Assembly (NCBI RefSeq): GCF_036588685.1 | Contig: NC_086382.1 | Coordinates: 6,386,001-6,450,000 of the forward strand | Origin: Mytilus trossulus | Taxonomy: Eukaryota | Direction of reading: 5' to 3' | DNA length: 64,000 nt | In this document: one piece after another, positions 10,687 to 61,626 of the stretch | Layout of the letters: every line of letters begins with the position of its first letter | Position numbering within the stretch: the stretch's first letter is position 1 | Translations under genes and position numbers: made by a program | The notes under the pieces: generated by a model | Database searches by the model: none | Told to the model about the DNA's origin: nothing | The model's input: the letters and a program-made list of their open reading frames with translations, nothing else

Positions 10687-10736
10687 AGGTCCCACCCACC
10701 TCCCCTTCATCCCCTTTCCTTATGTTTCTGTCTTGA

Positions 10737-20622: not shown

Positions 20623-21098
20623 AATAGTTATCAAAGGTTCCAGGATTATAATTTAGTACGCCAGACGCGCGTTTCGTCTTCATAAGACTCATCAGTGACG
20701 CTCATATCAAAACATTTATAGAGCCAAATAAGTACAAAGTTGAAGAGCATTGAGGATACAAAATTCCAAAAAGTGGTGCCAAATACGGCTAAGGTAATCT
20801 ATGCCTGGGATAAGAAATCCTTAGTTTTTGATAAATTCAAAATTTTGTAAACAGGAAATTTATAAAAATGACCACATTATTGATATTCATGTCAACACCG
20901 AAGTGTTGACTACTGGGCTGGTGATACCCTCGGAGACGAAACGTCCACCAGCAGTGGCATCGACCCAGTGGTGTAAATAGTTATCAAAGGTTCCAGGATT
21001 ATAATTTAGTACGTCAGACGTGCGTTTCGTCTTCATACGACTCATCAGTGACGCTCATATCAAAATATTTTTAAAGTCAAATAAGTACAAAATTGAAG
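20623..21098 (-). mobile_element. Retrozyme-like family B tandem (353-bp period) in intron 2 of temptin gene 2, sense to the gene
   Basis: Two hammerheads at 20658-20701 and 21011-21054, both with CUGAUGA/GAAA/GUC intact. Confidence 0.88.
20658..20701 (-). ncRNA. Type I hammerhead ribozyme, family B
   Basis: RNA GCGUCA-CUGAUGA-GUC-UUAUGAA-GAC-GAAA-CGCGCG-UC-UGGCGU; helix III palindrome ACGCGCGU. Confidence 0.88.
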
Positions 21099-21191
21099 GA
21101 ATTGTTTCATTGCGAAGATATATTTGTTCCGCATAATACTTGATTCCCCAAGAACAAAACTATTGATAATTATAAACCAATTGCTCAGAAA

Positions 21192-22026
21192 AACAATTGA
21201 AGGTCTTTCCACCATATAAGATCTTTTTTTATATTAAAATATTAAAAATCAGTCTAAAATGTCCGTTCCTATGGATAAATGATGTATAAATATGAATTGA
21301 AAGCAAAGGTCAAAATCTAGAACGTCCTATTAACCAATGACCTTGACCCCATTTTCATGGACACAAAAGTTAAATCACTTTAAGCATAACTCTAAATATA
21401 AGATTGGCAAAAACTTCCATTTATTGTTTACGTAACATTTCAGCCAAAATTTATAAGTAACGACATGTCACAACTAACAATTTAGTCAAAATAATTTGTA
21501 GATATCTTATATGTATTTTGAAAATAAATGAAATAAGCCAAAATCTAAATTTATAATATGATCTTGACCTTTGACCCTGACCTTATTTTCATTTTTTTGG
21601 ACCAAGGACCTTAAACTAAAAGACCCTAGGTCTCTATCACTTATGGGTTACCAGTTAGAAATGCATATTACTAATATCAAATGCATAAGGGGAAATAACT
21701 CTCATATGAAGAGTGTATATCGCTTTAGTTAAAATAGGACAAATCATGTGAAGAATATAACAAATAAAATTGCCGTAAACTTTTACGGTTGCGAAGGAGT
21801 AGCGGACACAACGAAAACAGTGTTTGGGGAGATAACTCTTACAAAGAAAATTGTTCATCTTAGCAGGGTGAAATTTAAAAGCGTATAAACTATACGATAC
21901 TATTTTTAAAATATCTAAGCGACATATTGCAAAACAAAAATTTCAAAATGTGGCGGGAATTTTTTTTTAATAATAATCAGAAGAAAAACAATAGGTCTTT
22001 CCACAGAAAAGTGGAAAGACCTAATA
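21192..22026 (+). mobile_element. HINE-like element
   Basis: AGGTCTTTCCAC near both ends and 3' hairpin AGGTCTTTCCACAGAAAAGTGGAAAGACCT. Confidence 0.55.
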
Positions 22027-22248
22027 AATTAAAAGTTCCTTGGAACAAACATTACATAATATTATTTACACCTTAATAATAATATTATTCACACCTTAAT
22101 AATAATATTATTTACACCTTAATAAGATATTAATTTCCTGGAACTAAAACGTCATATGGTTTCATAAAATTTGTTCCTTTAATGAAAGAGTGTCGTTTGA
22201 TTTTTTACATCTGCTTACATGTTAGTTAATGTTCACCTGTAATCATAT

Positions 22249-22430
22249 TGTAACTGGAGAACATGATTCTACTTGCAAAATCGCATGTCTCCACCGGGAC
22301 TCGAACCCGGGACCTCTGTGTTATTAGGCAGCGCGCTAACCGATTGAACTAAAAAAGCACTTCCTTCGCTCAACCGTTTACGGCTGACTAAGTATCTACC
22401 ACATGTTCTAAGGAACGCAATCCCGTCACA
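22249..22430 (-). mobile_element. 182-bp solo LTR containing a tRNA-like sequence (Helenus-type TRIM)
   Basis: TG...CA termini with short inverted repeats, ATAT duplicated at 22245-22248 and 22431-22434. Confidence 0.75.
22286..22358 (-). pseudogene. tRNA-Ile(AAT)-like sequence inside the solo LTR; not a functional tRNA
   Basis: A box TAGTTCAATCGG, CTAATAA loop, T arm CCGGGTTCGAGTCCCGG intact; acceptor and anticodon stems defective. Confidence 0.75.
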
Positions 22431-22943
22431 ATATAGTAGATATTTCAAGAACTTAAATCATCTAATGACCATGATAACTATTCCTGGAACATTTATAATA
22501 AAGTCAATATTCAAATCTGATGTACAGTAGTTGTCGTTTGTTTATGTAATATATACGTGTTTCTCGTTTCTCGTTTTGTTTATATAGATTAGACCGTTGG
22601 TTTTCCCGTTTGAATGGTTTTACACTAGTAATTTTGGGGCCCTTTATAGCTTGTTGTTCGGGGTGAGCCAAGGCTCCGTGTTGAAGGTCGTAATTTAACC
22701 TATAATGGTTTACTTTTTAAATTGTTATTTGGATGGAGAGTTGTCTCATTTGCACTCACATCACATCTTCCTATATCTATGGAACTTTTATAATGTAACA
22801 AATATTCCTTATGTAATATTTTATCCACTGTGAAGGAAATAGCATTGGAAAGTTCCAACTAGATCTTTTGTTATATGCTTAAAGTTCTTTGGAACAAAAA
22901 TTATGTTTGGGACTTATATTCTGTCACACCCTGTCCTCCTTAC

Positions 22944-23094
22944 CTGGGTGACCAGATGCAGCGGCACTAGGAGTTCCACCTTTTTTCCATGTACAATCAG
23001 GGTCTCCAAGTTCTTCACCATTTGTACGACCATCTTGGTCTGAATCTTTTTGACACAAATCTTTTGTCCATTCAAATATAGCGCCCTTAAAGTC
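22944..23094 (-). CDS. Temptin-like gene 2, exon 2
   Basis: AG|DFKGAIFEWTKDLCQKDSDQDGRTNGEELGDPDCTWKKGGTPSAAASGHPG|GTAAG; 151 nt. Confidence 0.9.
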
Positions 23095-24582
23095 CTGCAT
23101 AGTTAAGAACAACAGTTTACAGATTATTCAGATCAGACGATCAAGAACTAAAGCAGGGTTTTCATATCGTTTCCAATAGAAAATTTTCATATTACTAACT
23201 TATCAAGCTGATTTACATGTATTTCAATGTTATATTAACACTGGCTTATGTAAGGCAGATAATCATATTGCCACGAAGAAGGAAGTGTGACGACAAATTA
23301 GTCAAAATTCGGTAATATGAAAATTAAATTTTCAAAAGCTAATATAAGAATTAAATAAATGTTCTAACAGTTTAACGAATATGCGATACACAATTACAGG
23401 AAGATTTATATGTCACTTATCAAAATGGTAGGGGGGAAGCGTAATTTATACTGATATTAGAACAGTGTATTATTACATGCCTAATATTTAGGCAAGAAAA
23501 AGTTACTAGACGTCAATTTCGAAAAATTTATATTGATTAAGTCTAATACGTCTTAAATTGCAAACTTTTTGTCATTGATGAAAATTTGAGGCAGATCCGC
23601 CAAAAACGCTAATGAACCTTAGTTATAGCGGAAAGGCGGAGGAGCAGCGGTTTTCCATAACATGTTTACTGTTTAGCAGTAAACTATATAGTAAAAATGT
23701 CTACAGAACTGCAGGACACATTTTTTTTTTATTAATTAGACGATAATTAAAAGCTTTCCAATTATTTAACAGATATCGTAAAATAAATTACTTATTTTTA
23801 CATTTCAATATTTTATTGATATATAAATGAGAATTTGTGACACCATTGCCAATATCCATTATATATAAAATGAGAATGTATTGTTTGCATAAAGGTGGTA
23901 TTGAAGTATAAATTAAAAATGATATAATTTGTTCATAATTTGGCAAAACATAGTATATGAAGACCTGTTGGTGACCTTCTGCTGTCGTCTGCTCAATGGT
24001 CGGGTTGTTGTCTCTTTGACACATTCCCCATTTCCGTAATCAATTTTATATATTGTGATATCCCCCCCCCCCAAAAAAAAAAAATAATGATACGTCACCG
24101 TTAATTTCCTCAAGCTGCATGATGTGACAAAATGACACATTTTGTATGGATTATACATGGGGAACACATCATTTTGTGATAAGAAGCTATACTAAATGAT
24201 AGAATTGTAAAATAATAGTTTATAGAAAATTCTTTGGGAATGCCAAAAGAACAGATAGAGTCACCGTACGTTTTATCCGGCTAAGATACTAAATGGTCAA
24301 ATTTCAATTTTTCTTCAGAAAATGCAATATTTCAAAGTTACAACCCCTGAAATGTTAACACATTAAAAAGCAAGCAAAAATAGCCATGCTTGTACAAATA
24401 TTGATATTGATAAGTGTAACTCTTGTTCTTTTTAAAAATGAGAATTCACATTAGTTATCTGCATTCCTGCATTAAATTTTGCTTACTTGATGGCAAATTT
24501 GAACCTTATGTTCTCTTTTATTTACAATCACAAATGGCGAAAGACGCCCATACTATTTTAATATGAATAAGTGATCATGATG

Positions 24583-24920
24583 ATAAAATTGAGAAAGGAA
24601 ATGGTGAATATGTCAAAGCGACAACCACTCGACCATAGAGCAAACAACAGCCGAAGGCAACCAATGGGCCTTCAATGTAGCGAGAATTCCCGCACCCGTA
24701 GGTGTCCTTCAGCTGGCCCCTAAAATATGCATAATAGTACAGTGATAATGGACGTCATACTAAACTCCGAATTATACACAAGAAATTAGAATTTAAAATC
24801 ATACAAGTCTAACAAAGGCCAGAGGCTCCTGACTTGGGACAGGCGCAAAATTGCGGCGGGGTTAAACATGTTTGTGAGATCTCAACCCTCCCCCTATACC
24901 TCTAGCCAATGTAGAAAAAT
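24583..24920. repeat. Dispersed SINE-like repeat (related copies near 5083-5175, 23959-24050, 57420-57575)
   Basis: Shared GGAAAT.G.GAAT.TGTCAAAG.GACAAC.AC.CGACCA motif. Confidence 0.65.
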
Positions 24921-24964
24921 AAAAGAATAATGAGAATTTATTGGTAATAAGAAGATATTTTTAC

Positions 24965-25147
24965 CAGTCCAAATTGATTTCTAGGCCCTCCACCTGGTGC
25001 CTGGTCGTGTCCTACTCCTTTCCATATCTCACCAGTCTGTCCGCTGCAAGGATCTGGTACATTATTACCATTTGGAATATCATTTCTAAACCATGGAAAT
25101 CCAAAAACAACAGCTGCCAAGGCTAAATATACAATTTCTCTGAACAT
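24965..25147 (-). CDS. Temptin-like gene 2, exon 1
   Basis: MFREIVYLALAAVVFGFPWFRNDIPNGNNVPDPC...GVGHDQAPGGGPRNQFGL|GT; 183 nt, same length as gene 1 exon 1. Confidence 0.9.
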
Positions 25148-28100
25148 GACCGCTCTGTTGAAGTACTTCAAAACTATGAAAGTGTGTTTGTCTCCCTTTG
25201 CAAGAAATCACATGGAATGGTTCAGTCTTTATCTGGCCTTATGTAAAGTAACTACAGTGGAACCTGTGTCAATCGTAACCGTATCTTTGTGTGCCTCAAT
25301 TTTGTTAAGTTATATAAAAGTTTGGTTTGAAGAGATACAAAAGAGGGACTAAAGATGCCAAAGGGATAGTCAAACTCAAAGATTGAAAATAAACTGACAA
25401 CGCCATGGCTAAAAGTAAAAATACAAACAAACAAAAAATTGTACAGAAGACAAAACATAGAAAACTAAAGACTAAGCAACACAAACCCCACCAAAAACTG
25501 CGGTGGATATCAGGTGCTCCGGAAGTGTAAGCAGATCCCGCTCCACTTGTGACACCCGTCGTATACTATCCTGTCCGCTTTTTCAATATTTTGACATCAC
25601 CGGATGCGACTAATCAGATTTTTAATTACAATAGGCAACATGATGAGCGTCACTAGTGGAGCAGGATCTGTGTTCCCTTTGGAAGATCACCCTCGGGGTT
25701 TTTTTTCGGTTCGTGTTTCTAAGTATAGTTTTAAATTTGAAGACTGTTGTATATGTTTTCGTCGTTTTTGTTTTTTAGCAAGGTATTGTTGGTTTTTGTG
25801 CAATTTTATTTGCCCTTATTCCTTGGTATATTTCTCCTTATTTATACTGCGTACAACAAGTGCCCGTCTTCTGTTGCCTCATTATGATTCATTTATATAT
25901 GTATATATACAGAGAGAGAAATAAATTAAATTATGTTTTAAGCTATGAAGCCTCCATTTTTTTTTATATGTAGCCCTGGTTGTGGGGATCAGTTACAATC
26001 ATGGAGAAATCGAAGTGTGTAGTTTATTAAGAATGACGGACTAAAGTTAAATTTTGAATTTTTAAAATTAAGAAAAAAAAATTAATACTATAAGTTGAAG
26101 GAGCATCAGTTAATGAACAAAATAAACTAAAAAGTATTGATCAATAGGTTAGGGAGTTCCGTTTTTAGATATTTGAGTTTTAAAAATGGTGGGAAAAGGC
26201 TTACAAGTACTTTTACCTTACATTTGCATTGGTATCACTTGGGTCTCATTTGCTGCTTTAATTTGAAAATTGACCTTTTATGAGCTATTGAAGTCTTTTA
26301 TGAAAATACAAATGGTTGTAATGGGGCAAAATATTTTACCAAGTATGGTTGGAAAAAGACCAAGGAGTCCGAACATCTGACACTAATTTCCAAAACCTCG
26401 CCTAGGAACAACGAGACAACAACCCGTACACATGTACATTAACGCTATGACCAAGTGAAATATGAAAGAGCCCATTGTTTTAATCGGTTTGGAAACAGCC
26501 TGATAGGCTGTTTACAGGTTTAACTGTTTAAGTATCTGCTCCGATTCCTATGACCTTTTGTTTGTTCTTATTTCATGGACATTCGGTGTTATCTTAAATT
26601 CTACATTTCCGTAGATGTCACTATCTGGGTCTTATATAAGTACATCTAGACGAAGTTATGTAAGAAATTTAGAATTATAGAGACTATATGATATATTGTT
26701 ACGATAAAGCATGGTCATAAAAAAAAACACTATACATTGGTTTCCAAAGACTATAGAAAGAACATTTTAACAAATATATACCATTTTAGGTGGATGCAAG
26801 GAGTACAATTTAACACTTTTTCTCAAACCCAAACGACAAACATATTATGTCCCTCATACTAATCGTACATGGAGAGAGATAATCTGATAGCATCGTAGGC
26901 TATGTCAATTCACATTTGGTGGATGAATGGGTGGATTGAGATCCTTTTCTAACAGAAAAAAATTGTATTTTTCCTTATAAAAGGAAAGAATGTTTACTTA
27001 AAACACTCAAACACGTTAAAAGAACTAACTGGTCTAACTTAGCTTCAGAAACATTCTTAAGACACAAAAAAATAGATTTTTATTCAAGTAAAAAAATATC
27101 TTTGAATAAAGACTATTTTCCATTGAAACACATCCGATGCGTCCAATTGTGATAGTTGATAACGTATGTACCACATTCTTGAAGACTATATATACATTTA
27201 CAATAAACTGGACACTTGTTGTTTTCCTTCGTCGCTACACTAACCTTCGGAGCAGACATTTGGATTGAATGGCGGACAGGTTTAACATTTACCCTTCACC
27301 GAAATACAGTCATTTATAAATAATACATGTTCTATAATATATATAATAAAATATGTATGACCTTAAAAATACCGTGTTAATCAATGTTGAGATTGACATG
27401 AAACAGCTCTCAATTATTCCTCAATAGACTTTTTTTTTAAATTATTACAGAATCTTCCTTTACTCCGTGAACCAATAGATTATGCAAAATTGTTAATGAA
27501 ACATGCACCAATTTAAGTAACAACAGTACTAACAAAATTCTCGTACATGGTGTACTCAACATAGCACGCATATTTTGCCATACCTTTCTATGCTTAAAGC
27601 AAAATGACTGCCCCTTAAATGTAAATCTCTTGAAAAGGTTATGAAAAATGATTATAAACCAACGAGATATTAACTTAACACCAATATAAGTACGTTATGC
27701 ATTGTCAATCCCTTAGGAAATCAGTGCTATATATATATTTATATGTATTTGCTATGTTTTTGTTTTGGTGATTTATTTTCAGGGCGGGCTTTAAAGAAGC
27801 AGCAGTTAATTTTCAAGACAGTCCTAATTTCAACGTTTCTACCTTTTACGGATCCGTTGGTCCAGTTTAATGACATGATTTTAATGAGGTGCTCGTTTTA
27901 TACTGAGGGGGTCTCGGATATTATTAATTAACTCTCTGAGATTGCAAAATTTGACACTTTCCTAAAGCTTCTGTCTAACCAGCCAATGTGATAGTGAAGG
28001 ATTTGTTGAATACACTGGATAAGCTTGTTTCATAAATACGGATTAGTAAATGTATCTATAAAACCTATTTATAGCAGTATATACTAAACTACCATAATAT

Positions 28101-30811
28101 TTCGTGTTTGTACTCTTAAAATAGATGCGTTCTTAAGACTTTACATGATAATGAACACTATAGTTATGAAGGTTAGATACATTTCCTCCTAATCAATAAG
28201 AAAATTTTACAGTTTGTTACATTGTAAAAAAGTTGCATCACTGTCTAAGGACAAAGTCAAAGTGAAGGTTTCAAAAACATACTAAATTGTGTAAGTTATT
28301 TTAATATGATTTTTTAAATAAATAACTTTTGATGTGACCATACGGTATATATTTCTCTCATTGTTGAAGGCCGTACGGTGCCTTATAATATATTTTATCA
28401 TCCGTCATTTAAACTGTGGTGGGTAGTTGTCTCAATACCTCATATCCTTATTTTGATAGAATGTGACATTGAAATATGTTCGCATATAAACACTCATTAC
28501 TAGTTCCAGACTACATGTAATTATTTAGTACGACAAACAGACTGTTAGCCGACACTCGAATCAAAATAGTTGCGAGATCATTTCAATTACAAAATTAAAA
28601 CCCATTGATTAACACAACTCCAAAAAATGTAGAATATGCGAAATCTGAAAAAGCTTTAACATTTTATGAATAAGTTTACAGAAAATGACAGTATCAATAT
28701 TTCATTCCAACAAAGGAGCACTGACTATCGTGCTTGTGATTGCTACGCGGACGAAACTTCTAGCAACAGGGAGACCTTGTAGTGCAAACCATTTGAAGTT
28801 TTCATAGTTATTAGTACATGAACCATGCACGTATATTCAGAGGCACTCGTTTATAAACAGATAGACCGCCAAATTGTGTTGCATTGGAAAACCAAACATT
28901 CAACAACTTTGTGCTTTCAGCTATATAAACCTAGTACTACAATAAGGTAAATTAATTTTCGAAATTATCACTTCATAAGTTCTACATTCGTGAATGGATT
29001 AATCTTTACGGGTTTATTATGCAAGTTTTATATTTGTACCGGTGAAGTTACAATTTGTTCCAGACTTATATATTTAAACCTATCACGGTTTACCATTTAC
29101 AAATTGTGAATTGGAATTGCGAGTTATCTCATTGTCACTCATACCACATCTTTTTTATATCTATTTGATTAATTTGGCTCTTAATGGCCAGTGTATGGTT
29201 TTATAGATGCTCACGACCTCGGATATTTATACACCATTGGCTGTAACTTATATCGGTTTAAGCATTCTTGATGAATTTTTTTTTTCTTCAGAAAAGCACT
29301 TCAGACGCGCGAAATCTCTTAAATCTTATTTACATTTTCCACTCTTACTTTACGGTTACATTAGCTGTTTCAACATTGCCACATAATCATTTGGAGCAGG
29401 ATCTACTTACCCTTCAGGAGTACTTTTTCTGTTTTTGGTTTGGTTAGTATTGTGAAGTCTTTAATTTTCTATGTTCTGTTTTGTTTACATGTATTGGTGT
29501 TTTAGTTTTTATTTGATTGCTAATTATGACACAAAAACCAAAGCTGTCGATAATTTTTTTTTTAACAATTATCAATTTATAGGACTTTAACTGTAATTGA
29601 ACTAAAACTAAGATGAGAACCGGCACAAGCCAATTTTTCAATTTTGGTTGTCTTGTTTCTTTTTAAATTGATGCTGGTCAATATCGTATGCATTTGATTT
29701 AATTCAAAAACATTTGGTTGTGAGTGTTCCTGTTGCATGATATTCCATATTCAAAAAGTACCAGTTGAGTGCGTACTGTTATTGAAATAACTACCACTGT
29801 AATCGCATATAATAAGTCAACATTCTGGTATTTCTTGGGTTTTATTTCAATTTGTTTTTTTTTTTCATTTTTATTGATCTATTTTTCTGTCGGCGATCAT
29901 GTTTTTTTGTGACTATTACTAAGTCATAGATCAGGCTGTTTGGTTTTCTTGTTTTTGTTTTTATTTTGTCATGTCTGAGACTTAAAAGTTTATAATTACT
30001 GACAACAGGGGTTTATCCATAATTGAAGACAGTACAATAACGATAGTTGCGCATGCTTACATCCATGTCATTTTGATTCTGGTTGATAGCTGTCCCATTG
30101 GCTATCATACCCATATCTTATTATCTTCATATCGCAGGTTTTTTTATTTTGGTAATAGCAACGAAGACGTTTTATGAGTAGTGTTTTCATGTTACTGCAA
30201 TTAAAAAACTAAAGGACCAAAAATATCATGACATGTCCTGTTTTGAAACTGGATTATCAAGTAGTGTTTTTTTTTATTGTTGAAGGCCGTACTGATACCT
30301 ATAGTTGTTAAAGGCTATGTCATTTTGTTTCTGGTTGAGAGTTGTTTCATTAGAAATCATAACACAGCCATCTTTTATCGGTACTGCTTGTGCATCGATG
30401 TTTACCTTCCGAAAAACTGATAACACTGGTTATGAATGGAGCAATGCGCACGCTTTACTACGTGTAGATAGTGTGTTGGTCTTGTACATTGCTATTACTG
30501 TTTCCTTGACCTTTATTTTATTATATATACTATCAGTGAAGGTTAGTGATAAATGAAAGTCATTAAAAATTGAAATTCCTTTTATTTATTTTTTTATTTT
30601 TTTCTAAATTACATACAATTTGTCAACGAATAAATGTAATAAACGATAAAATGAAAAATGTGACATTTTGAAAAAAAATAGCAATGACATTAAATAAATG
30701 ACATCTTGTAGGACAGTCATATTGCACATGTTTGGTGTTGCCGAAAACACAGAATATTTGTGTGTCCGTTGTTAGGAATCCCTTTCCAGTTCGTCTTTGT
30801 TGGATACCAGG

Positions 30812-30900
30812 TTATCGGCCAAACTTTGGATTCGGATGGTTACAATATATACCCAAATTCTTTATTAAACATTTTGCACTACTCATTGGCTCGCATATCC
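30812..30900 (-). CDS. Temptin-like gene 3, exon 3
   Basis: TTTGCAG acceptor; (G)ICEPMSSAKCLIKNLGIYCNHPNPKFGR*. Confidence 0.85.
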
Positions 30901-32644: not shown

Positions 32645-32685
32645 TCGACGTTTAAAAACAGTTTATTCTATTCACTATGAAAGAG

Positions 32686-39436: not shown

Positions 39437-39530
39437 AATAGTTATCAAAGGTATCAGGATTATAATTTAGTACGCCAGACGTGCGTTTCGTCTACATTAA
39501 ACGCATCAGTGACGCTCATGTCAAAATATT
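39437..39530 (-). repeat. Truncated family B retrozyme-like copy, ribozyme core mutated
   Basis: AATAGTTATCAAAGG...TACGCCAGACGTGCGTTTCG...CGCATCAGTGACGCTC. Confidence 0.75.
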
Positions 39531-39622
39531 TAAATTTAAAGTTGTTAAGTTTGATGTATCATAATGCCTTTTAGGCTTCTTTGTTACATTTGTTTGTTTT
39601 ATGGTGATTAAGATAATGACAT

Positions 39623-40328: not shown

Positions 40329-40341
40329 TAATGTAAACTGC

Positions 40342-40740: not shown

Positions 40741-41545
40741 AGTACCCCTATTATTATTTTTTTCTATTTTTACATATTTTGTCTGTTTGTTTTGTTCACG
40801 TATCGTTGTCAATATAATGGAATTTGATGCAACTGTCATACAAGTGAGAGATTTATCTGGTTATAAAACCAAGTTCAATCCACCATTTTCTACATAAGAT
40901 CATACTTAATTTATGCAGGAGTATGATAGCTGTTATTCATTCGTTTGGTGTGTTTGAGATTTTGAGTTTGCCATTATTTTGATTAGGGACTTTACTTTTT
41001 GAATTTTCCTCGGAGTTCAGTATTAATGTGATTCTACTTTTTCGGACCAAATGTATAATAGTAATTATATCTATGGTAGGACAAACGGAATATAATAGCT
41101 AACAAATTCGACATATAAAATGTAAATGTCCCCATGATATCTTCCGATTCGTTTTTATAATCCAAACTTCGCCACAAGTTAAGGACAAGTGCCACTTACA
41201 ACAAATACAATTTAATGTATATAGTAAAGGCAGTATTCAAATTTAAATATAAGAATAAAAAGATGTGATATGATTGTCAAGAAGACAATTCTCCACCAGA
41301 AACCATATGATAAAGAAGTTAGCGACTATATGTTATCAGACAGTTGTATCATATGTCTCTGATGTCACCGTACGGCCTTTAAAAATTAGCAAAACCCAAT
41401 ACCTCGAAATGATAAAATTAATGCTTTACAATTCACACGATAAATCTAACAATCTGATGTATGTACAAAACAACAAACAGAAAAAAAACTAAACTTACAT
41501 AGCAGGCATTGCCTGGGACAGGCACATACAGTCGACTTAGAATAT

Positions 41546-41727
41546 ATAGTTATCAAAGGTACCAGGATTATAATTTAATACGCCAGACGAGCTTCTCATC
41601 TACATAAGACTCATCAGTGACGCTCAGATCAAAACAGTTATAAAGCCAAACAAGTACAAAGTTGAAGAGCATTGAAGACACAAAATTCCAAAACGTTGTG
41701 CCAAATACGGCTAAGGTAATCTATTCC
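41546..41727 (-). repeat. Truncated family B retrozyme-like copy downstream of gene 4, GAAA core mutated
   Basis: Aligns to the 20623-20810 segment. Confidence 0.8.
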
Positions 41728-42243: not shown

Positions 42244-43013
42244 CTAAAATCATACACAAACATTCATTGATTGTATCAAATGACTATTTATAATAGCTTT
42301 GTATTTATAATCTTAATATTTTGCAAAAATTAAAATCACAAAAATACTCAACTCCGAGGAAAATTGATAACGGAAAGTCCCTAATCAAATGGCAAAATCA
42401 AATAATAAAACACATCAAACGAATGGACAGTAACGGTATTGTGTTTCGTCTTATTTTTTTGTATGTATTTGCTGTTTTTTGTTTTGTTTTCAACATCTTT
42501 TGTTTTTGTTAATTTTTGATGGAATTCAATTTCGTTGAAAACATATTTTGTTTTGATATGTATTACTACTAACAATTCATATGAGCTCCAATCATCAGCA
42601 GGGATTTTAACACAAAACCGGAATAATATGTTCTTTTTTTTAGGGGGTCGTTTCATACTATTGTGTTGCTGCCTCATGGATGTTAAACCACATGTTGTTA
42701 TGATGTGATCTGTACAATAAGATACCTGTATGATTTAAAAGGAGCTGCATGAAAAATTAAGATAAAAATACAGACAGAAATATGTGTGAAATAAAGGCAA
42801 CAGTACTATACAGCTGTCCGATAGTCAATAATCGACTTAGACTATTGTTTTACACAAATTCAGTGCTTTTGTCTATATTATGACAGCCATGTTTTATTAA
42901 TGAAGGACGTCAGAGTACCCGGATAGAAAAACAGACTTTTGGCAGGAAATCTTTAACAATTTAAATAAGCTTTCTTAATGGTGTGTACAGTATGCACTCT
43001 ACAGTTTACTAAC

Positions 43014-43674: not shown

Positions 43675-43724
43675 TTTTAATATTTGCAATTTTCAAAAAC
43701 TCTGTTCTGTCAACCCTGAATTTA

Positions 43725-44095: not shown

Positions 44096-44239
44096 AATAG
44101 TTATCAAAAGTACCAGGATTATAATTTTATACGCCAGACGCGCGTTTCGTCTACATAAGACTCATCAGTGACGCTCAGATCAAAATAGTTAAAAAGCCAA
44201 ACAAATACAAAGTTGAAGAGCATTGAGGACCCAAAATTC
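44096..44239 (-). mobile_element. Truncated family B copy with intact hammerhead (44131-44174) upstream of gene 4
   Basis: ACGCCAGACGCGCGTTTCGTCTACATAAGACTCATCAGTGACGC, identical to 11222-11265. Confidence 0.85.
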
Positions 44240-47200
44240 ATAAGTCATGAAAAGAAAGTTAGGAAGTCAGAAAAGGTCTGATATCAGCATCGTCTTATTA
44301 GGTTGGTCCATCCTTTATCGCTTTATTGTCACTTCCTGGATGACGTCTTTCTTATATATCCCTTCTTGGTAGGTTCCAATATCAGAAACATCGTAAAAAT
44401 TGTCATATTTGTTCAATTTACTGTTTATAATGTTTTAATTGTCACATGTCTGATAAAAACTTGCTTACATTTATATGCATTTAAATTTTTTAAAGGTTTA
44501 ATTCTATCAGGACTATCATTATTGTTCATATATTTTGAAAACTGTATTTCATCTTTAAAGGGAGTTTCCATTCCTCCCCCTTTCAAGTTGTTTTTGTATT
44601 AAGACAACTTTATTGTCAGATTGAAAGATACTATATGATGTTTAGCAGATTTTAAAAATTAGCTGAATGCCAAAATCAAAAACTTTATTGGAAAATTGAT
44701 AGTGTTTGAATGTTAAAGTGTATAAATATGTTTTTTGATGGCTTCTAAGAAATACATGTACCTTGTCAGAAGTATGACAGTTGTTTTCCATTCGTTTGAT
44801 CTGTGTGAGCTTGTTTTTTTCGTAATGGTATTCCGTTTTGAAATTTCCTTGAAGTTTGTTATGTTTTGTTATTGTACTTTTTATAATTAAATCTTTGAGA
44901 GCTCTCAAAATATAAAGGCTCAATTAAGAAGAAAACAAAAATATGTAAAAAAAAAAACCAACTAATGCAATGGTCCAGAAATATTAACAATAAAATTAAT
45001 AAGTCAATGAAAGTGTTGCTTGTTGATAAGTATAGAACAAATTAGGCATTATATAGAAATAACAGATTTGTGATTAAAAAAGAAAGCACTGACTTGTGAT
45101 CCCTTTTCAAAAAAGATACATCTAAAGCATTACAGGATCGGTAATTTTCGGATCTTCTCATAAAAAGTGAGTAGCATATTTTACTTCAATGCCGATATAT
45201 AATTTGGCATTACATATTACAATCGTAAAGTAAAAATCACAAAAATACTGAAACTGAACTCCAAGGAAAATACAAAACGGAAAGTCCCTAACCGAATGTC
45301 AAAATCAAATAATAAAACACATCAAACGAATGGACAACAACTGTTTTTTTTCCTGACTTGGAACATTATTATATTAAAATAGAAGGTAAATTGTGTCGTA
45401 TTCCGATCTTCTACCTACCCCCTTCCCCCCCAAAAAAAAATAACCAATGAATAAGTTGAAGTGTTTCGAACGGGTAACAAATTCGTGTCGTATCAATAAA
45501 TACCAAGGCTACTTATACAATAAACGTAGAACCAGCTAGAAACACACTCAAAAATACAATTTCGATCATTTTTTATTGTTTGACCTCAAAATTTATAAAA
45601 AACATAAAAAAAAAATGAGTTAAACAATAGCCAATACAACATTTTATACGAAGTTCATTTTCTTTCAAATGCTTTAACTATCCCAGCATTTCACGCAAAC
45701 ATACTCAGAAAAGTCCTCTAAGGGAACGACAGCATACTAAGAAATCCCCTTTTAGAGACACAATTATTAAATATCACATTAGCTAAAGTGACTTTCGATG
45801 TTCTGCTAGTAGCGGTAGTAGACTACAATAAAGATGTATCATGGAAGATTAGAAGAAAGAACGCTAAAGATACTCAAGATTGAGTTCAAAATATTGTTGT
45901 ATTGGTATGTAAATATTGACACTTTACTTCCGCGATGTTAGTGTGGGAATTTATCTTGACTTTTGGTCATGAGATTTAATTGTTGTTAAATTGTAAATAA
46001 TGCGATAAGAGTGGGTTTGCATGACGTCACATTGATTCCCACGTAGCAAGTATAAACACCTTATATCTACATATTGGTGTGCCAAGATACCACATGCATT
46101 GTGTATAATGAAGTATGTATTAAGGAAACCGACATCAACATGAAAAAGGGTACCAAAAAAATAAAAGATGTGGTATGATTGCCAATGAGTCAACTTTCTA
46201 CCAGAGAAAAAAATGACACAGAAGTTGCTGACTACATTTCGCCGTATGACTGTCTGCAATGAGCAAAACCCAAGATATTGAAGGCCCTTTTACAATGTAA
46301 ACAAGAAAAATAAACGAAAAACAAATATACATGTAATATACAGATACACACGACAATCACCGAATTACGTTCTCCATACTTGGTACTGTATTTTACAGAA
46401 TATGACATGGGTTAAACATGTTAGCGGGTAACCAAATTTCCCATGACCTGGGACAGTGGTGTAACGTCACAAAAAGAACAAACTATAAGAAGCAATTCAC
46501 AAGGCTTAACACCTACATGTATCTCCCTCTTTGAATTTAGATACAAAAAAAATCATACAAGGACGAGGTTTCAAAATTGTAGAAACCTTGCTTAAACTCG
46601 AACTTGAATACTAGGTATTCAATAATCAGTCATGTCATTCAAATAATAACCATTTTTACTATATCAATAACTTACATTAAAAAAATACGACATTTCAAAT
46701 TTCAATTGTTTTTCTAAAAAAGTTAACTCAAAGAACATTTTTTTCATAATATTATTATTATATTGAACAGTTTTTATTTTTCAATTTGGGAAAAATAATG
46801 ATCCAACTCCCACACTGGGTGTAGATAATTAGAAAATATGACATTTATATAATCTTGAACTATATATATTATGTTTATTTAACCACCGAAAACAGATGTC
46901 AAAGGGCGTTCACATTTATGCCATAAATATATTCTATTTCAATTATCAAATTTAATAACCAAAACATTGCAGATCTTCACACTTGTTGGTTTGTTTATAA
47001 CAATGTTGAGGGTGGTACATGTTGAAGGTGATTAACGACATTAGTATTTGTATAACAAGAATAGCACTGTTTACCAATGACAAAGCTGTCTTGTACACTT
47101 CATACAATTCAAATAAATAAATTGTTTGCATGAATTCAGTTTGCTGAATTAGTAAAATAATTTTTAATATGAAACAGTCCCCCCCACAATTTGATTTTTC

Positions 47201-52700: not shown

Positions 52701-55700
52701 TCTTTGAACAAGAGATGCTAATTATCATACTGATTTCCTAGACACAGATTTTTTAAACCTGAGGGGGTAAGGCGTCCAAACTTATTATATTTTTTTTTTT
52801 CAAAATCTGTGATAATTCGTGGATAAAATAAACCAAACCTAATGTTTCAATCAAATCATTGCATAGATAAGGGAATTTACCTTCCTAATGTATAACTTGA
52901 TATGCAAAAGATGTTGTCTTGTATTTATAATTTCACTGTACAGTCATATTTGTTTAATTTTTTTAGCATTCAGGTAAGAGTTGTAAAAATATAAGTCTAA
53001 GTCCAATGCTAAACCTTGGTAGACCTCAACAAAGATTTATTGTTAACCGTTGTTGGTCCATCTATGTTTGTGATGCTAGGTTGCTGTCTTGTTGACATTC
53101 ACCTTATATCTCATTAATCCAAACGTCTTTACGTCCTGCCCCAGAGCGTCCTTGTGTCGGGTTGGTAGAGAATGCAGCCAAACTCCAATGGTAAACTCTA
53201 AAGCTATACATTGTATATACCTCAGGGGAAAATTTCCATGGAATGTCAATAAAATTGTTCGAACCATTCTGGGTCCTTGCTTATGTATGAAAGATCTGAT
53301 AATGTCTCATCAAATAGACTACTGCAGAAAATATTTTGTTCAGAGATCCCATTGATGCTGAAACTGCAATTTACATTAACACAATTAACTGAAAGTACTG
53401 GTATGACCACATCACGCAATATATAGTATAGATTTGTATCTTGAATTAACAAGACTAGGCATTGTATTTGTAACGTGTCTTGTGGTATAGTTTCCCTCAT
53501 TGTTGACAGCGCTACGGCGACATACTTGTTAACTTGTTCTTCATTTGGTTTCTGCATGGTGGAGAGTAGTATCAGACGGAATTTCTCATTCTAATATTGC
53601 TAACATCATCTGAGAACTTATTATCAAGCAAATCAAACCTTGTTCGTATTTTCTAACACGTGTTTTGTAATATATTCTTTTGCTCACCTGGAGATATTTA
53701 TAGAACTGTAGATGTATTTTCTTATTTCAGTGTATTGTTGGGTAACTTGGGTTGTTGTTTCACCAGCGTATCTCAATTTTTGCTATGTTTTTAATCATAC
53801 TATGTAAAACATTATATAATTTCTTCAACATTGTATTTTATATGTTGTAGTCAGATGATTATGTCTATCGACTTTAGTTTCAGTTTTCAAAACAGGAAGG
53901 AGTAATCAAATTAAAAAAGGTAGATTTGTTTGATAACCAATGAGACAACTCTCCACAAAGAGAGGAAATGACACAGAAAATAACAACTATAGGTCAAGGT
54001 CAGAGTACAACCTTCAACAATGAGAAAGTCCATGCCGCATAGTCAAATGCGGTCGATATATTCAAGCATGTGTCATTGCAATCATCCTTTCAAATCATAT
54101 GACTAGTTAAATATCGCACGTTAACAACATCTAATAAATTATCAAAAAATTTCGTCAGAATAACATTTTTATTTAAAAAAAACAAAATCAAAAATAAGTT
54201 AATTACATGATGATTCATCTGGTTGTTTTACAAGAGCAGCATAACAAATTTCTCAACAATTTTCGACCAAGCTTATTTGTTTTTCTTTTTTGTGTGTCTG
54301 AAAGAGACTGAGAGTCTGTTTTTGCTATTTTGCAAAACTTGTTTTCCTCTGCTGGTGTTTCACTTGAAGTATATCCGTCTGCTACTTCCCACAGTCCTCC
54401 ATTCTCTGAGACTGCTTCCGGTAACATATCTACACCAGCTATGTCCCAGAATTCCTCACTGGGATAGAACTCAAAATCGTTACCCAAATCCAGCCATTCG
54501 TTATCAATATTCATGGTTGTCGTCGTAAATTCTGAAAATAAAACAATTTAAATTGAATACCCGTATGTTATATATACAATTTCTATTTTGAATAATCTAA
54601 AAATGAAAAAAAGCCATAGCCGTTTCCATTAAAACGGATTTTTTTTCGCCATTTGATGCATACATTATTAAAGTATGACCTTACTGGTTATTTTTTATAA
54701 TTCTTTCAGAAAATATGTCTATAGACGATTCCAGAAATATTCTACTTACTTAACACATGAAATACATGTAGGTACAAATCTATTTGTTGTTACGTTCCTA
54801 TGAGTCGTGGATTGTGGAATATTATCTGTATATTTCCAAATCGTTCGAACTTCGAGTAAATTGGTCATTGTCATGTGTTTAACAGCTATTTGCCAATAAA
54901 ATCGGTATATATCATTTAATCTGCACGGTCTTGGTGGTCCTTTAATACGAACTCCTAGGTCGCTCGGGTAAATTACGTCACCCAAGCCGTGATGATATAT
55001 ACCGACTTGCATTGTCATTAACGGTAACATATTGCTGTAAAAAAAACGTAATGACTGACATAATTCTCCTTATTCTCCTGACTGTGTGAGATTTGTGATA
55101 AAAAAAAAGTTCAAATTCCTCGCCCCCACCCTCCCCCTAAAAACAACAACAAAAAACATAAATCTTCCTAAACGTTATAAGTGTAGTTACCTTGCTGATA
55201 ATATTCCTCTTCGTCTTCAAAACAAAACTCCGTATCACGTGTCTGTCTATGTTTTACTCGTCTGGTCATTGATCCTTTAATCTAGGAGAGAGAAAAAATA
55301 CATTTTAACTCTCCTCGTATACTTCTATTACTACTTAACACATACTTATGACGCGTATATACAAGCACAAATAAAGTGCATACATTATAACCTAATGTCT
55401 GCCTTTAAACAATGGGACAAAAAAGGACAAATAAAGAACACAAAAAACAACCTAAATATCTAAAGTTTTAGCAACATAAACCCCAACAAAATCCAGCGGA
55501 TGCTCTCATGTTTTCCGGAACCCTGCTCAACATGAGGCACCAGCCGTAACAAGTATTCATAGACAGGCTATATATATATGTCATTGCGTGGTACCAGGAC
55601 CTATAGGGTTTTTTGTTGTTGTATTGACTAGTATTGATATATTAATGTTAAAAATCCTATTATTATTAGTTATACTAAATTATATTAAATACGCGTTTAA

Positions 55701-57897
55701 TCTTTTTCAGAAAATATTATTAGTTATACTAGTATACGAGGATTTGGATAGTGGACCTTCAGTTCTGTATTCTTTGTACTCTTATTCTTTTAGCCTTATT
55801 CTTAAGTTTATACATATTGTCTACTAGTATATTCTTTATAACTGATCACCTCATTATTTTCTTCATATTTTGTATATATAAAAAATAAAAGGTGTGGTAT
55901 GATTCCCAATGAGACAACCGTCCACAAGAGACCAAAAATGACACAAAAATTAACAACTATAGGTCATCATACGACCTTCAACAATGAGCAAAGCCCATAC
56001 CACATAGCCAGCTATAAAAGGCCCCGAAATGCACCCTTTTCTGTTGTGTTCACTAACTGATTAAGTACAAATTAGACTTGTGGCATGTAAAACCATCTGT
56101 CCTTTCTTAATTACCTTCATAATTTTGTTGAGTACGTGCCTAGTCCAAGACGATTTCTTTTTGTTTGATTGTTTATCTGAAATTAGAAAATGTTCTTAAA
56201 TACCTATAAAATATAAATATCGCATAAAAAGAAAAAAGAAAAAAACGTTCTCAATTGAAGTGACTGATTTATGTCTCAAACTTCTACTTTTTTATTCTAC
56301 ACGATCTATGAGAAAGTTATCATATTCCTTCGAAATTTGCTGTCTCGTTTAAATGCATTGTAAAGGCTATACTGTTCTATTTTTTTTAATTAAGTTACTC
56401 GTTCCAAAAACTTACTGTCAAATGCAGTAATTATCATTTCTTGACCAGGGTTCTTCGTTTGTGTACATCCAAAACTATCCTTTTTCTGAAAAAGATTAAA
56501 CGAAGACTATCTTTATGTAACAATCTACAGGACACAAGCATTTGTATATCGGATATAATTTGTACATGTAGCTCCAAATTTCAGAACCTATTTTGTTTTT
56601 TGTTATATAATGCCAACAAAATTGTATTCAATTTGCTGAAAATTAAGATCTAGCAGAACTCGTGCGCTCGTCGAAGCTCATATGAGCATAACAAAATGCT
56701 TAGCGACGAGATATTACGAGATCTGTATTTTCGAGTTGCTCTAGATCTGTCTTGTCTTCAATTTATTTTATGGACTGTTAGTGTAAACATATTTTATTAA
56801 TTATATTCAGGTACATACATAGGCATTTACATAATAATACAAGTAAAATAATTAATAGGATCCAGAAACAAGCTTTAGCTTTTATTAATTTGTTTCCTAA
56901 TAAGAACATTTCATATTTTAATACTCAAAGGGTAAAATGTTATAAAAAATAACAATGTTACACTAGATGGAAAGAAGAAAAAAACATATAATAAGGTTTG
57001 TGACACACAAGAAAGAAGAAAAAAATATATACATCGGAATAATAAAATGTATGTTTCTGAACGGACACAATTATAGATATAAGTATTACTTGTTGAACAA
57101 GATGTGTGCTATCATATGACAAATCTTTTGCTACTGAGTATAAATGTTTGAACTGCCAAGAAGATTTCAATGTTTTTGTTCGTAGCTGAAGTCCGTTGAA
57201 CCATAAGGACTGTTGTTTGTCTGTTTATATGCTTTCTTTTTTAAAATGGTATTGTCAGATAATTTTCGACTGATGAGTATCAACGTCCTTTTTGCGAATT
57301 TCGCCTCATTTTAAAATTTTGGTTTTATTGAAGAGATATTACGAATTTCAAAATTCGCAATTACAATATTTATGTGCATTAGGAATCTTTATTTGATTTA
57401 ATCCTATAAGAAATGCGGGGGACTTTTATGAGCCAGCTGAAGCAAGCTCCGGATGCAGGATTTTTTTCTTGCTACATTTAAGACCCATTTGTGGTCTTGG
57501 ACTGTTTTCTCCTCTCTGGTCGGGTTGTTGTCTCTTGAAGAGACATTATTCGTTCCCATTTTCATTTCTATTTTGCATTCCTTCACTTGTTTAAACAGAT
57601 GAAATTTTATTCAAAAATAAGAGTCTTGTTAAAAGTATCCGTGTTCTGCAGATTGCAATCAACTAACCTCAATGTTAATTCCATGTTGGGTTTTGTCGCT
57701 ACAAGCAGCAGACAGAATGATTGAAACATCTATAGAGCCAGATCCAGCCATATCTGTCATGAGAAAAATAATTTAATGTTAAATTTTTTGCTGTGTATAT
57801 AAAAAAAAATTGAAGAAATAGAAATATTCATTTCACAGCAAGTAAGTATAAAAAATAATAAAAAATAATGTTTTTTTTTTCTTCAGATAAACATTTA

Positions 57898-58130
57898 ATA
57901 AAATTAACTGAAATGCTAAAAGGCATCCACATTTTCTGATTAAACGTTCAAACTTAATATGTTTTGCTCTTTGATGAATCTATTATTATCAATAATTCTT
58001 CTTCTTTTTTTCATAAATTTTTTTTTTTATAAAATTCACTGAAATGCTGTAAAGTATCCAAATTTTCTGATTAAACATTCAAACCTTAATATGCTTTGCT
58101 CTTTAATAAATCTTTTTTCATCAATTCTTT
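57898..58130. repeat. Diverged tandem duplication of about 130 bp
   Basis: TAAAATT.ACTGAAATGCT..AAG..ATCCA.ATTTTCTGATTAAAC.TTCAAAC occurs twice. Confidence 0.7.
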
Positions 58131-58395
58131 TTTTATTTTGTAAATAATTGTTAAATTAAACAAAGTTTAACGTACTTACCAAATCTGTATACAAGATGTC
58201 TGTATGATTTTATTTGCAAAATGTTCAAGCTCAAATCTAGTGACTGTCTTGAAGATGGATAACGTCGCGAAGATATCTCCTTGTCAACAGCGGTATATAG
58301 TGACGTACACGACGTCGGTAGTCACATGTTTAAAAACGATAGTCCGTAAACACAACAGCAGTTATAGGCCAAAAAATATAGACGTTGATAAATCT

Positions 58396-58897
58396 TTCAC
58401 TACTATCAAAGAACTTATCATAAATAATTGTAATAAAATATATGAAATTAATTTTTTGGGGAGTGTAAAACATTCTTTGGATGTTTTAGATAAATAACAT
58501 GCTTTGGATGGTCCTTTTGATTCTGTTGACAGTGACTAGTCTACTCTTTACACTACACAACCACAAAATCTTATTAAGAATATTTTTTCCTATTTAATTG
58601 AATTGTCGTTTGGTTAATCTGAATGCAAATACATTTGCAGCAATTCATTTAAAGCCTTCTTCTAATTAATACACTGCCAAAATTTACGTAAAACGAACTT
58701 TCTTCAAATAAATGTAATTTAAACGGTGATAAATGTCCTTTCCTAGATTATGATATTTCGGATTTCACGGGAAACTCGACTCTCAAATTTACGACAAAAG
58801 GGACGATTGTTCATTCCCTACATTTGGTAATTTTTCCTTTTTGGATGGTTATGTTTCTTTGGCACCATCTTCCGGTGTTTATAATCGCGAATTCGTT
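58396..58897 (+). pseudogene. Decayed Penelope-like element reverse transcriptase fragment
   Basis: Broken frames read TIKELIIN..NFLGSVKHSLDVLDK, STLYTT.P..LIK, CPFLD, IYDKRDD, NFPFLDG.V.LAPS.GVY, which match PLE RT motifs (STLYT, YDKRDD, GVY) from recall. Confidence 0.7.
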
Positions 58898-60011
58898 TTA
58901 GGTCCTATATTATTATTGATATTTATTAATGATTTGCATTTGTGTAATCCTAATCATAACCTTGATCTTTTTGCTGATGATAGCACTATTTCTGTAATTG
59001 GAAAAGACAAAAGGTATATACGTCAGACACTCAATGTTGTATTAGAAAATATTTGTCAATGGGTTGATGAAAACAAAATGTTAGTTAATGTGTCAAAAAC
59101 TAAGACAATGTGTATAGGTTCAAAACAAAAACTGTCTGTGATGTGTAATGACACATTAAATGTATCCATTAATGGCCAAAAGATTAATGAAAGTCACTGT
59201 GAAAAAGTCCTAGGTATTTTTGTTGACAAAACTCTTTCTTGGTATGATCAAATTATATAATCAAAAAAGTTAAATTCTTCATTAGCTTTATTAAAACGAA
59301 TCAAGAAATTCTTGAATCACAATGCACGAATTCTATTTTACAATGCGTATATTCTTTCACATTTGGATTACTGTTGTTCAGTATGGGGAAACTGTAACAA
59401 GTTTTTAGTTGACAGTTTACTAAAATTGCAAAAAAGGGCAGCTAGAGTTATTTTAAACGAACACGATATTCGTAAACCATCCATTGAACTATTTAAGGAA
59501 TCTGGAATTATTCCTGTTACTAACAGAATTTCTTACCACAAATCATTATTAATGTATAAATCACAACACCAACTGGCACCAAAATATTTATCCAATCTTA
59601 TTGTGCCTACAAGTAGTAAACAATCGTACAATACTCGACTTTCATCATCGGATAATTTTATTGTCCCTAAATCAAATACAGAATTATACAAATTAAGTTT
59701 TTCTTTTAGTGGTCCAAAAGTGTGGAATTCACGGTCCAGTGAAATTAAAAAAATCAAAAAGTATATCTGCATTTAAAAACTCTTACAAGTCATTTTATTT
59801 TTAAAAGTGTTAAATTTATAAGTTAAGCCACAATGTATACCATAGGTGTTTTTGTTGTTGTTGTTACATTACTTTATATACGTCTATTGTTTACATGTGT
59901 GTAATAGTAGATTAATTATGTTTTATATATATTGTTAACATTGTATGTATATATAGAGAGCCTTATTGAAAATTAGTTTGATCCAAATAAGTTACTTTCT
60001 TTAAATAAAGC

Positions 60012-60083
<72 letters not shown>
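58896..60083 (+). mobile_element. 5'-truncated CR1/L2-clade LINE (RT C-terminal half, 3' UTR, microsatellite tail)
   Basis: LGPILLLIFINDL, FADDST, NVSKTK, EKVLGI, LDYCCSVWG, LQKRAAR, SFSFSGPKVWN; frameshift near 59260; AATAAA then (ATT)n. Confidence 0.9.
60013..60083 (+). repeat. (ATT)n microsatellite (LINE tail)
   Basis: About 23 consecutive TAT/ATT units. Confidence 0.95.
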
Positions 60084-60084
<1 letters not shown>

Positions 60085-61476
60085 ACGCAAAATCGCGAAG
60101 TCGAAAACGCAAAATCGAAAAGAAAAAATATTTCGCCTTTTCGCGTTTTCGACTTCGCGTTTTCAATTTTCGACTTCGCGATTTCGCGTTTTCGACTTCG
60201 CCCTATAGAATATGAAGTGTAAAATTGCCTTAACCGGCCACCATAAGATGTAGACATTTATTGAAAAGGTCTACTAGAGACGCACTGGCTTTTTAGATTA
60301 TTTATATTTTAAATTTGCTATCGGGGTTTATAGAACTTTGTTGAATTGGATTATCTCCCATATAACACTGTGGATGAAATTCTATATCCGTATTTATCTA
60401 GAGTGCATTTCTTTTTAACACAATCGATGCAAACGGCTAAGAGCGTACATGTTTTGATTATTTCTTTCAAACCTACGTTTGAAAAGTTTGCATAAACTTT
60501 GACAAACTATGCAAACGAACCTGATTAAACGAAGTATTTGTTTCTACGTTTGTAAAAGTTTGTTTACCATCAACAGGTGCATGCCTTATTAAAAGTTCAA
60601 ACAGGGTCAGTAAAGACTTATTAAACGATGTATTTGTTTCTACTTTTGTAGCGTTTAGAAAGAAAGAAAAAAACGCGACACAACGCTTACAAAAGAATTA
60701 GAAAGAAATGCGGCCATAGTTACAACCGGTATGACTGCACGTGCTATCCGTGACTATGCTGAACTAATACAAAGAAAATAAACGAGGAGTGTGACTGAAC
60801 TCTCAATGTCGTGGTTGTAGCATACACATATTATTATATGAATTGAGTGTTCCTCATAAAATACCATAAAGATTTAAAAGGACGCATTCAATTTTTAGAT
60901 GCAATCTCCCTTATTCTTATGCTTCAAAACTGTCATATTGACATTCTTCTTGTTCGTGAGTTGTCATCTTTTTCCAAATGATTTATATTTTGAAAGCAAT
61001 CTCTTTTGTCCGCTACAGAATAGCACATTAGTGCTGAAAATGTCTTTAAGCACCAACCAACCAATCAATCAATATTTTAAACTTCTTTTAATAGATCTAT
61101 ACGAAAATAAACAAAATATGGTATGATTGCCAAAGAGACAACTCTCAACAAGAGACGAAATGACACAGAAATTTACAATTATCGGTCATCGTACGGACTT
61201 CAACAATGATCAAAAGTTATACCACATAGTCGGCTATAGAAGGCCCTGAAATGACAGATGTAAAACAATCCAGACGAGGTGACTAACCTTTGGCTCTGTA
61301 CGCATATACATCCCGTCATTGTGTTATTGTGCTATGGTAATTTTTTGTATTATTGTCTATCATTTGTGCTACATGACTTCGTCTATATGACTTTTTGTGT
61401 TTCTTTGTTGCCTATTTGTTTGGTTTTTAGTGATTAAGAATATATGGTATTTTTGACTGCTGTACCCCTACTTTTT

Positions 61477-61626
61477 GGAATTTTAGATCCTTAATGCTTT
61501 TCAACTTCGTACCTGTTTGGCTAAAAATATAAATATTTTGATATGAGCGTCACTGATGAGTCTCTGATGAGATGAAACGCGCGTCTGGCGTACTCAATTA
61601 TAATTCTGGTTCCTTTGATAACTATT
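61477..61626 (+). mobile_element. Truncated family B copy with variant hammerhead (61547-61591)
   Basis: GCGTCA-CTGATGA-GTCTC-TGAT-GAGAT-GAAA-CGCGCG-TC-TGGCGT. Confidence 0.8.

Follow-up and report, generated by a model that had tools for sequence, protein, structure and literature searches.

Retrozymes in the genome of the mussel Mytilus trossulus end, where they are inserted, 6-7 nt before a predicted RNA stem that they have in common with Naiad, a Penelope-like element (PLE) resident in the same genome, and we think it likely that the Naiad protein binds this stem and starts reverse transcription just 5' of it. The copies in question lie in a stretch of 64,000 nt (assembly GCF_036588685.1, contig NC_086382.1, positions 6,386,001 to 6,450,000 of the forward strand; hereafter the window) and in a genome-wide sample. 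We observe a cluster of 3' ends, one and the same stem register in four retrozyme families and in Naiad, a fold supported by covariation, inserts that read through the ribozyme cut and, in a minority of inserts, short duplications that start in the terminal TT. Retrozymes and internal priming by a PLE are already known; our searches of a literature that holds few subscription journals returned no publication that connects retrozymes to Naiads or describes the stem.

In Mytilus galloprovincialis, non-LTR retrozymes (that is, lacking long terminal repeats) have been described as type I hammerheads in tandem units of ~350-390 nt, present in thousands of copies (Cervera and de la Pena 2020, PMC7229834). 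They self-cleave and yield abundant circular RNA, and PLEs have been proposed as their mobiliser via this circular RNA. The M. trossulus repeats, type I hammerhead retrozymes with tandem units of 349-368 nt, resemble them, by the published description, in hammerhead type, unit length and copy number: a 40-nt retrozyme core has 10,228 exact copies across the 1.30-Gb genome. Unlike the present analysis, the available part of the M. galloprovincialis account gives no insertion ends, start site or partner. For animal retrozymes in general, a further source, available in part, reports no conserved motif naming the mobiliser and states that the enzyme and the place of priming on the circle are open (PMC7761336).

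In the window, the retrozyme of family B at 20623-21098 (minus strand) comprises 1.35 units of 353 nt, with predicted cleavage at C 21017 and C 20664, and ends 41 nt after the last cleavage site (+41), that is, at -7 relative to the first base of the stem. The type I hammerheads of its first unit (21011-21054) and last unit (20658-20701) score 33.8 and 33.0 bits against RF00163 (E 1e-6 and 2e-6), the gathering score being 34; no Rfam match exceeds its gathering score anywhere in the window, and the hammerhead core and stems of families A, C and D were identified by reading. No open frame of 150 codons overlaps the window copies; metazoan non-LTR retrozymes are as a class non-coding, with tandem units of 150-450 nt, neither primer-binding site nor polypurine tract, and target duplications that, where present, exceed 4 bp. 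Four further B copies are 5'-truncated: 39437-39542, 41546-41727 and 44096-44243 on the minus strand (predicted cleavage at C 39478, 41586 and 44137; ends at +41, +40 and +41), and 61470-61626 on the plus strand (C 61585; +41). The family A array at 1201-2386 (plus strand; 3.4 units of 349 nt; C 1295, 1646, 1995 and 2344) ends at +42, or at +39 if its terminal ACA is a target duplication, and the family C array at 11182-11824 (minus strand; C 11592 and 11228) ends at +46. An earlier note on this DNA had reported these end points for the five B copies and the two arrays, and all of them hold. So does its remark that the 5' ends vary: those of the B copies lie at 21098, ~39542, ~41727, ~44243 and ~61470, and sampled 5' ends fall into 19 (B) and 16 (C) different 12-nt bins. 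The common stopping point it proposed stands for the cited copies and fails for one window copy it omitted, a worn B-like fragment at 14481-14602 (minus strand) that breaks off early in the spacer and gives way to a Naiad 3'-end fragment (14426-14474, minus strand; -51 to -3 of the stem). At 14426-14602 the two pieces are joined in the same sense, possibly through a template switch of the reverse transcriptase or a nested insertion.

To place the window copies in the genome, we called insertions in 140 evenly spaced 10-kb stretches (1.4 Mb), using real units as queries; retrozyme fragments shorter than ~35 nt go undetected by this procedure. Among 121 retrozyme matches, 120 had a scorable 3' end: 75 of these lie at most 12 nt before the conserved stem, and only eight within 5 nt of the cut. 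The cluster holds 36/48 ends in family B, 29/47 in C, 7/14 in D and 3/11 in A (p under uniform ends: 6e-43, 2e-31, 1.5e-7 and 0.005, respectively), and at an identity of at least 85% the figures become 29/33, 17/22, 6/9 and 0/1. Exact patterns built on a 22-nt anchor directly 5' of either point gave a similar picture over the whole genome. At the end point, the opening three bases of the stem are all mismatched in 2,326 places and the sequence continues in 3,893; at the cut, 125 mismatch, many of them small deletions, and 14,164 continue. The 3' ends are thus neither uniformly spread nor located at the cut, the two outcomes that the earlier note had named as speaking against a fixed end. Of the eight ends near the cut, the four of D type belong to another family having only the hammerhead in common. 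What looked in a match table like a further end shortly 5' of the hammerhead core, together with a fixed 5' end, proved on reading of the loci to be an artefact of the search cut-off. A hammerhead repeat family of ~548 nt (L189:427 and 975; L215; L220; L165) has a D-type core and is unmatched by the stem model; it may have another partner.

Such a cluster could in principle arise at the DNA level, by segmental duplication of one old truncated copy, by recombination or by carriage within another repeat. A few copies are indeed duplicates (L027/L028, L063), and one 27-29-nt fragment rides in a Naiad subfamily. The sequence beyond the end is unrelated, however, both in the sample and among 100 junctions listed genome-wide, one repeated pair excepted, which largely refutes this origin, and four families as well as Naiad stop at one register while their 5' ends are spread. 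We regard a DNA-level origin as highly improbable.

The four families differ in the length of the spacer between cut and stem (A 44, B 47, C 53 and D 39 nt). Measured from the cut, the median end lies at +41 in B, +48 in C and +34 in D; measured from the stem, it lies at -7, -6 and -6. Distance from the cut differs strongly across families (Kruskal test, p 9e-13) and distance from the stem does not (p 0.10), in a comparison that is partly circular as it used ends preselected near the stem. A ruler of +41 would capture almost no C or D end in the sample, and a C copy whose spacer is lengthened by (TA)n (L077) still stops at the motif. The end wobbles between -9 and -3 relative to the stem, through microhomology. 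Of the fixed point ~41 nt downstream of the cleavage site that the earlier note had described, the fixed end therefore remains, 41 nt being a property of family B only; the constant is the distance to the stem. Nor does the end sit immediately before the shared box, as had been stated: in B, 5 nt separate it from CACTGGG. RNA folding predicts the B spacer to be unpaired and a long bulged stem to start at that box. The ribozyme is not the ruler, because Naiad, which has none, ends at the identical register; the anchor of the 3' end is the downstream Naiad-type RNA stem.

The Naiad family was found by a genome search for GIY-YIG domains (149 matches), and the start of the element matches the retrozyme stem. 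Its protein of 1056 residues carries the GIY-YIG domain (PF01541) in N-terminal position, at residues 183-273, and the motifs of the available published list (PMC8557442) are recognizable by eye: a lengthened Cx..CxxC finger, a KR block, CxC, GxKF and DKA. At least 16 intact frames of 1056 codons, 99-100% identical, are present. In the available supplement of Craig et al. (2021, PMC8557442), Naiad_Mgal has the same first bases, a near-identical N-terminal protein, partial tandems, no hammerhead and a consensus starting at -6. The resident element likewise forms tandems with a period of 4,277 nt, including partial ones with truncated upstream copies (pseudo-long terminal repeats, pLTRs). Its sense strand holds no hammerhead core CTGANGA, and no Rfam hammerhead was found in 500 nt around its start.

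Naiad ends fall where retrozyme ends do. Twelve full-length loci could be scored: eleven have their end between -8 and -3 of the stem and one has it at +1, three more having run off their stretch; among sampled fragments, 51 of 124 end at -12 to -1 (median -6). In the window, 3'-end fragments stop at -7 (40758-41042, plus strand, and 42325-42426, minus strand), -6 (44750-44883, plus strand) and -9 (45227-45365, minus strand). A further fragment, from the 3' untranslated region (UTR; 61387-61883, plus strand; -372 to -32), is interrupted by the B copy 61470-61626, with T-rich microhomology at both junctions. The reverse nesting occurs at L173:1752-6770, where a T-run of a B retrozyme is the insertion point of a young full-length Naiad. 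A second Naiad subfamily has a 27-29-nt retrozyme 3' end fixed in its 3' region, which moves along with it (L149:550-578; L181:1553-1581 and 6153-6181); neighbouring repeats show the empty site for this fragment, with TT at both junctions. A preference of retrozymes for Naiad fragments as neighbours was considered and rejected (1/121 against 4.9 expected).

The stem-loop domain spans 20884-20981 in family B (minus strand), where an outer 7-bp stem starts at 20969, inner bulged stems are present and a UUCG hairpin follows, 1678-1775 in family A (plus strand; also 1328-1425 and 2028-2124), and 11451-11550 in family C (minus strand). It is the most conserved part across retrozyme families, with compensatory changes. 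Over eight retrozyme and Naiad sequences, 96% of cells are paired and 7 of 30 pairs have both of their bases replaced, including three outer-stem pairs that differ between retrozymes and Naiad, in a set of related sequences that was also the source of the structure and in which the inner hairpin of Naiad is misaligned by three columns. A covariance model run over 28 sources gave 12 matches, all of them retrozymes or Naiad starts. No Rfam family or ribozyme matches the domain. For the conserved GCUGGUG, the 3' bulge region is an alternative pairing partner (7/7 in A and B and 6/7 in Naiad, by eye; window 20884-20981, L172:2077-2187), a pairing also predicted in the window C copy, which could constitute a switch.

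The stem core is not restricted to mussels. In the available supplement of PMC8557442, there are 23 occurrences of CTGGTGGA, of which 14 open a Naiad consensus, and with a second word the stem core stands at the start of 15 of the 54 published consensuses. Naiads with the core word come from corals, bivalves, hemichordates and a fish, and by eye the outer 7-bp stem is fully paired in seven published consensuses and paired at 6/7 in two, with differing letters. The available main text of that study mentions no conserved 5' RNA stem and no non-autonomous Naiad client, and retrozymes appear once, as possible exploiters of PLEs.

The stem could nevertheless be the relic of an old Naiad capture, retrozymes being mobilised today by a hammerhead-bearing PLE of the Neptune or Poseidon type or by a long interspersed nuclear element (LINE). 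Several PLE families that have a C-terminal endonuclease and long open frames do occur in the genome, hammerhead-like motifs being seen close to the ends of some of them, and Xenopus retrozymes are reported to resemble the pLTRs of such PLEs (Li, Clavereau, Pollet 2026, bioRxiv 10.64898/2026.07.22.740005, available in part). Against this, the stem is the best conserved part, with its compensatory changes, and the end register equals that of Naiad; moreover, the stem model finds no match in three families of PLEs with a C-terminal endonuclease, coverage 5' of the frame being ~120-135 nt at two of the loci. We hold a present-day mobiliser of this kind to be unlikely.

What was copied can be read from the 5' side of the inserts. 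Seventy inserts have the canonical end; 63 of them continue past the cut for more than 10 nt and eight contain at least two cuts; the template was therefore uncut or re-ligated there. We rejected a 5' pile-up at the cut, as expected from run-off on a cleaved monomer, as a major class: it gave 42 matches genome-wide against 29 at a control position. Sixteen of 30 cut-site 5' matches that were read passed a crude filter as true junctions, and about ten sampled 5' ends lie within 7 nt of the cut. Absence of a pile-up combined with read-through indicates that the cleaved monomer is not the main template. A stricter pattern, designed to detect stalling of the reverse transcriptase at its binding site, gave 20 matches with 5' ends in the first arm of the stem. 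No empty allele of 20623-21098 was seen among the matches listed from four DNA sequencing runs, which were swamped by other copies, and RNA contigs at a locus with Naiad and retrozyme cover both elements and are uninformative on strand, ends and circles. The earlier note had placed the start of reverse transcription at an internal position of a circular or multimeric template. Ends away from the cut and inserts that cross it agree with this proposal; the internal start itself is one that we infer, and circle and uncleaved multimer both fit.

Uncleaved linear multimers transcribed from genomic arrays could thus be the template on which Naiad primes internally, circles and hammerhead taking no part, a variant that is compatible with the Naiad link. 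Long arrays are present (dozens of B units at C1:269-301 kb), Naiad itself manages without a hammerhead, insertion by Poseidon_Ac in vitro is unaffected by hammerhead mutants in the available part of PMC11167929, and mussel hammerheads are described as cleaving slowly (PMC7229834, in part). Yet circles are reported in the same mussel source as the dominant RNA form in tissue, and the hammerhead core persists across four families with diverged flanks, which points to selection on the core. We consider linear multimers possible, if on balance doubtful, as the template. The B array itself (G000:C1:269000-301000) lies near a contig end and may be a source locus or a locally amplified satellite.

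A different account would place a true RNA 3' end at -7: a stem-directed cut, by a ribozyme, a nuclease or a terminator, would give linear unit RNAs running from -6 to -7, at whose 3' end Naiad would prime, template jumps making the tandems. In its favour, published Naiad consensuses start 4-9 nt before the stem, some being annotated 'no pLTR' in the available part of PMC8557442, and Naiads, which lack a hammerhead, need a route to unit RNA; runs of T also stand ahead of the stem in Naiad and in families A and D. But in family B just three T are found at this place, none of the sampled 5' ends of retrozymes falls between -7 and +1 of the stem, and the lack of an Rfam ribozyme match for the domain counts against a ribozyme. 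In addition, mussel retrozyme RNA is reported to be mostly intact circle (PMC7229834, in part), and a related PLE shows internal initiation (PMC11167929, in part). We judge an RNA end at this position unlikely.

Possible traces of the priming event are visible at some targets. Duplications of at least 6 nt occur in 14 of 85 inserts, against 2.0 after shuffling (maximum 7 in 500), in a test anchored on the terminal ATT that was designed after cases had been seen and in which 45 of the 85 loci were targeted. Most duplications start with TTAA or TTATA and overlap the last TT of the element, which suggests a nick in AT-rich DNA followed by a primer match of 2-3 nt. So short a match would also account for the wobble from -9 to -3. 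In one nested case, a family D array within a family C copy (L067, minus strand, 79-1195), an apparent 7-nt duplication overlaps the terminal TT.

We thus favour priming by Naiad just 5' of the stem. The GIY-YIG domain would nick AT-rich DNA (TTAA- or TTATA-like), and the primer would pair through its last two or three A residues with AUU or UUU at -9 to -7. Copying would then proceed 5'-ward, over a hammerhead junction either ligated or uncut, until the reverse transcriptase stops at a variable distance, sometimes after more than one round. The hammerhead would contribute the circle and have no influence on where the end falls. The stem, lying 3' of the start, would be copied only if the enzyme rounds a circle or traverses a multimer; and, since insertions of both Naiads and retrozymes stop short of the stem, full-length daughters could arise only from a circle or tandem transcript or through template jumping.

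Several points weigh against this account, besides the partial circularity of the ruler comparison, the narrow set behind the fold and the after-the-fact design of the duplication test. All the enzymatic steps are ones that we infer. The RT motifs YIDD and GIPMG are present in the Naiad protein, and Pfam RVT_1 gives no match at E 0.01. Among sampled ends, 45 of 120 lie outside the cluster, mostly in worn copies, and clustering is weak in family A (3/11). No 6-nt duplication is seen in 71 of the 85 inserts, and an earlier, looser duplication test was null (mean 2.98 against 2.96 shuffled, 57 inserts). In the resident Naiad, unlike in retrozymes, the stem bears one additional hairpin and its last hairpin is shorter. 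The additional hairpin is also missing from several foreign Naiads. The retrozyme stem looks closer to the Naiads of other species, and a search for a hairpin-free Naiad in this genome, limited to one narrow pattern, gave 27 matches, of which eight were examined and none had a Naiad frame. The donor of the stem and today's mobiliser may therefore differ.

Comparison with Poseidon_Ac, from another PLE clade, also cuts both ways. In the available part of its biochemical description (Frangieh et al. 2024, PMC11167929), the enzyme initiates reverse transcription at internal positions of the RNA, with which the genomic ends coincide; it needs RNA located 3' of these positions but no hammerhead cleavage, and its targets are of ATT type. 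The two start sites of Poseidon_Ac, though, lie inside an AC-rich stem-loop, giving a 30-40-bp tail, and involve no primer homology, whereas the retrozymes show one cluster (-9 to -3) located 5' of the stem and an apparent microhomology of 2-3 nt, a difference that weighs against our reading. That part of the study is silent on retrozymes, Naiads and circles. The Xenopus retrozymes were likened to PLE pLTRs and proposed to use PLE enzymes; as far as the available part of the preprint goes, that proposal concerns a vertebrate and rests on similarity over the whole pLTR, with no breakpoint mapping, cis element or Naiad link.

Pairs formed by a short interspersed nuclear element (SINE) and a LINE offer a broader parallel: the non-coding client bears the 3' stem-loop by which its partner's reverse transcriptase recognizes RNA. 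In SINE/LINE pairs this structure is within the inserted 3' end, whereas the retrozyme/Naiad stem lies beyond the end of the insertion and would be left uncopied in the first round. More tentatively, and with confidence a little short of even, we extend the reading beyond the mussel: Naiads across animals would carry an undescribed RNA element that places their telomerase-like reverse transcriptase just 5' of it, so that transposition of a full-length Naiad would depend on circular RNA, read-through of a tandem or a jump between templates. The retrozymes of mussels, as circles produced by the hammerhead, would have acquired this element and would exploit the ribozyme-free Naiad as parasites, through rolling-circle reverse transcription.

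A common cis element and an identical end register name a candidate mobilising enzyme with intact young copies in the same genome, and supply an RNA of ~100 nt, a start position and compensatory mutants that are testable in the existing Poseidon_Ac assay. They also uncouple the hammerhead from the definition of the end, explain the pLTRs of PLEs as a consequence of a start 5' of the binding site, and point to a conserved RNA partner of a telomerase-related reverse transcriptase.

Other elements accompany the retrozymes. A DIRS-like retrotransposon occupies 5341-10914 of the window, with overlapping long frames, RT, RNase H and tyrosine-recombinase-like motifs recognized by eye, and inverted repeats at 5341-5492 and 10737-10886. 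A single open frame of 789 codons (15010-17379) has hydrophobic stretches and, by eye, a C-terminal TIR-like region. The stretches 58754-59776 and 62142-64000 hold broken non-LTR RT-like frames and a 31/11-nt composite satellite, which runs off the end of the window. Elsewhere in the genome, a tandem repeat of 330-440 nt with a tRNA-like segment, seen by eye, stands beside (TA)n and PLE ends (L160, L159, L164, L169).

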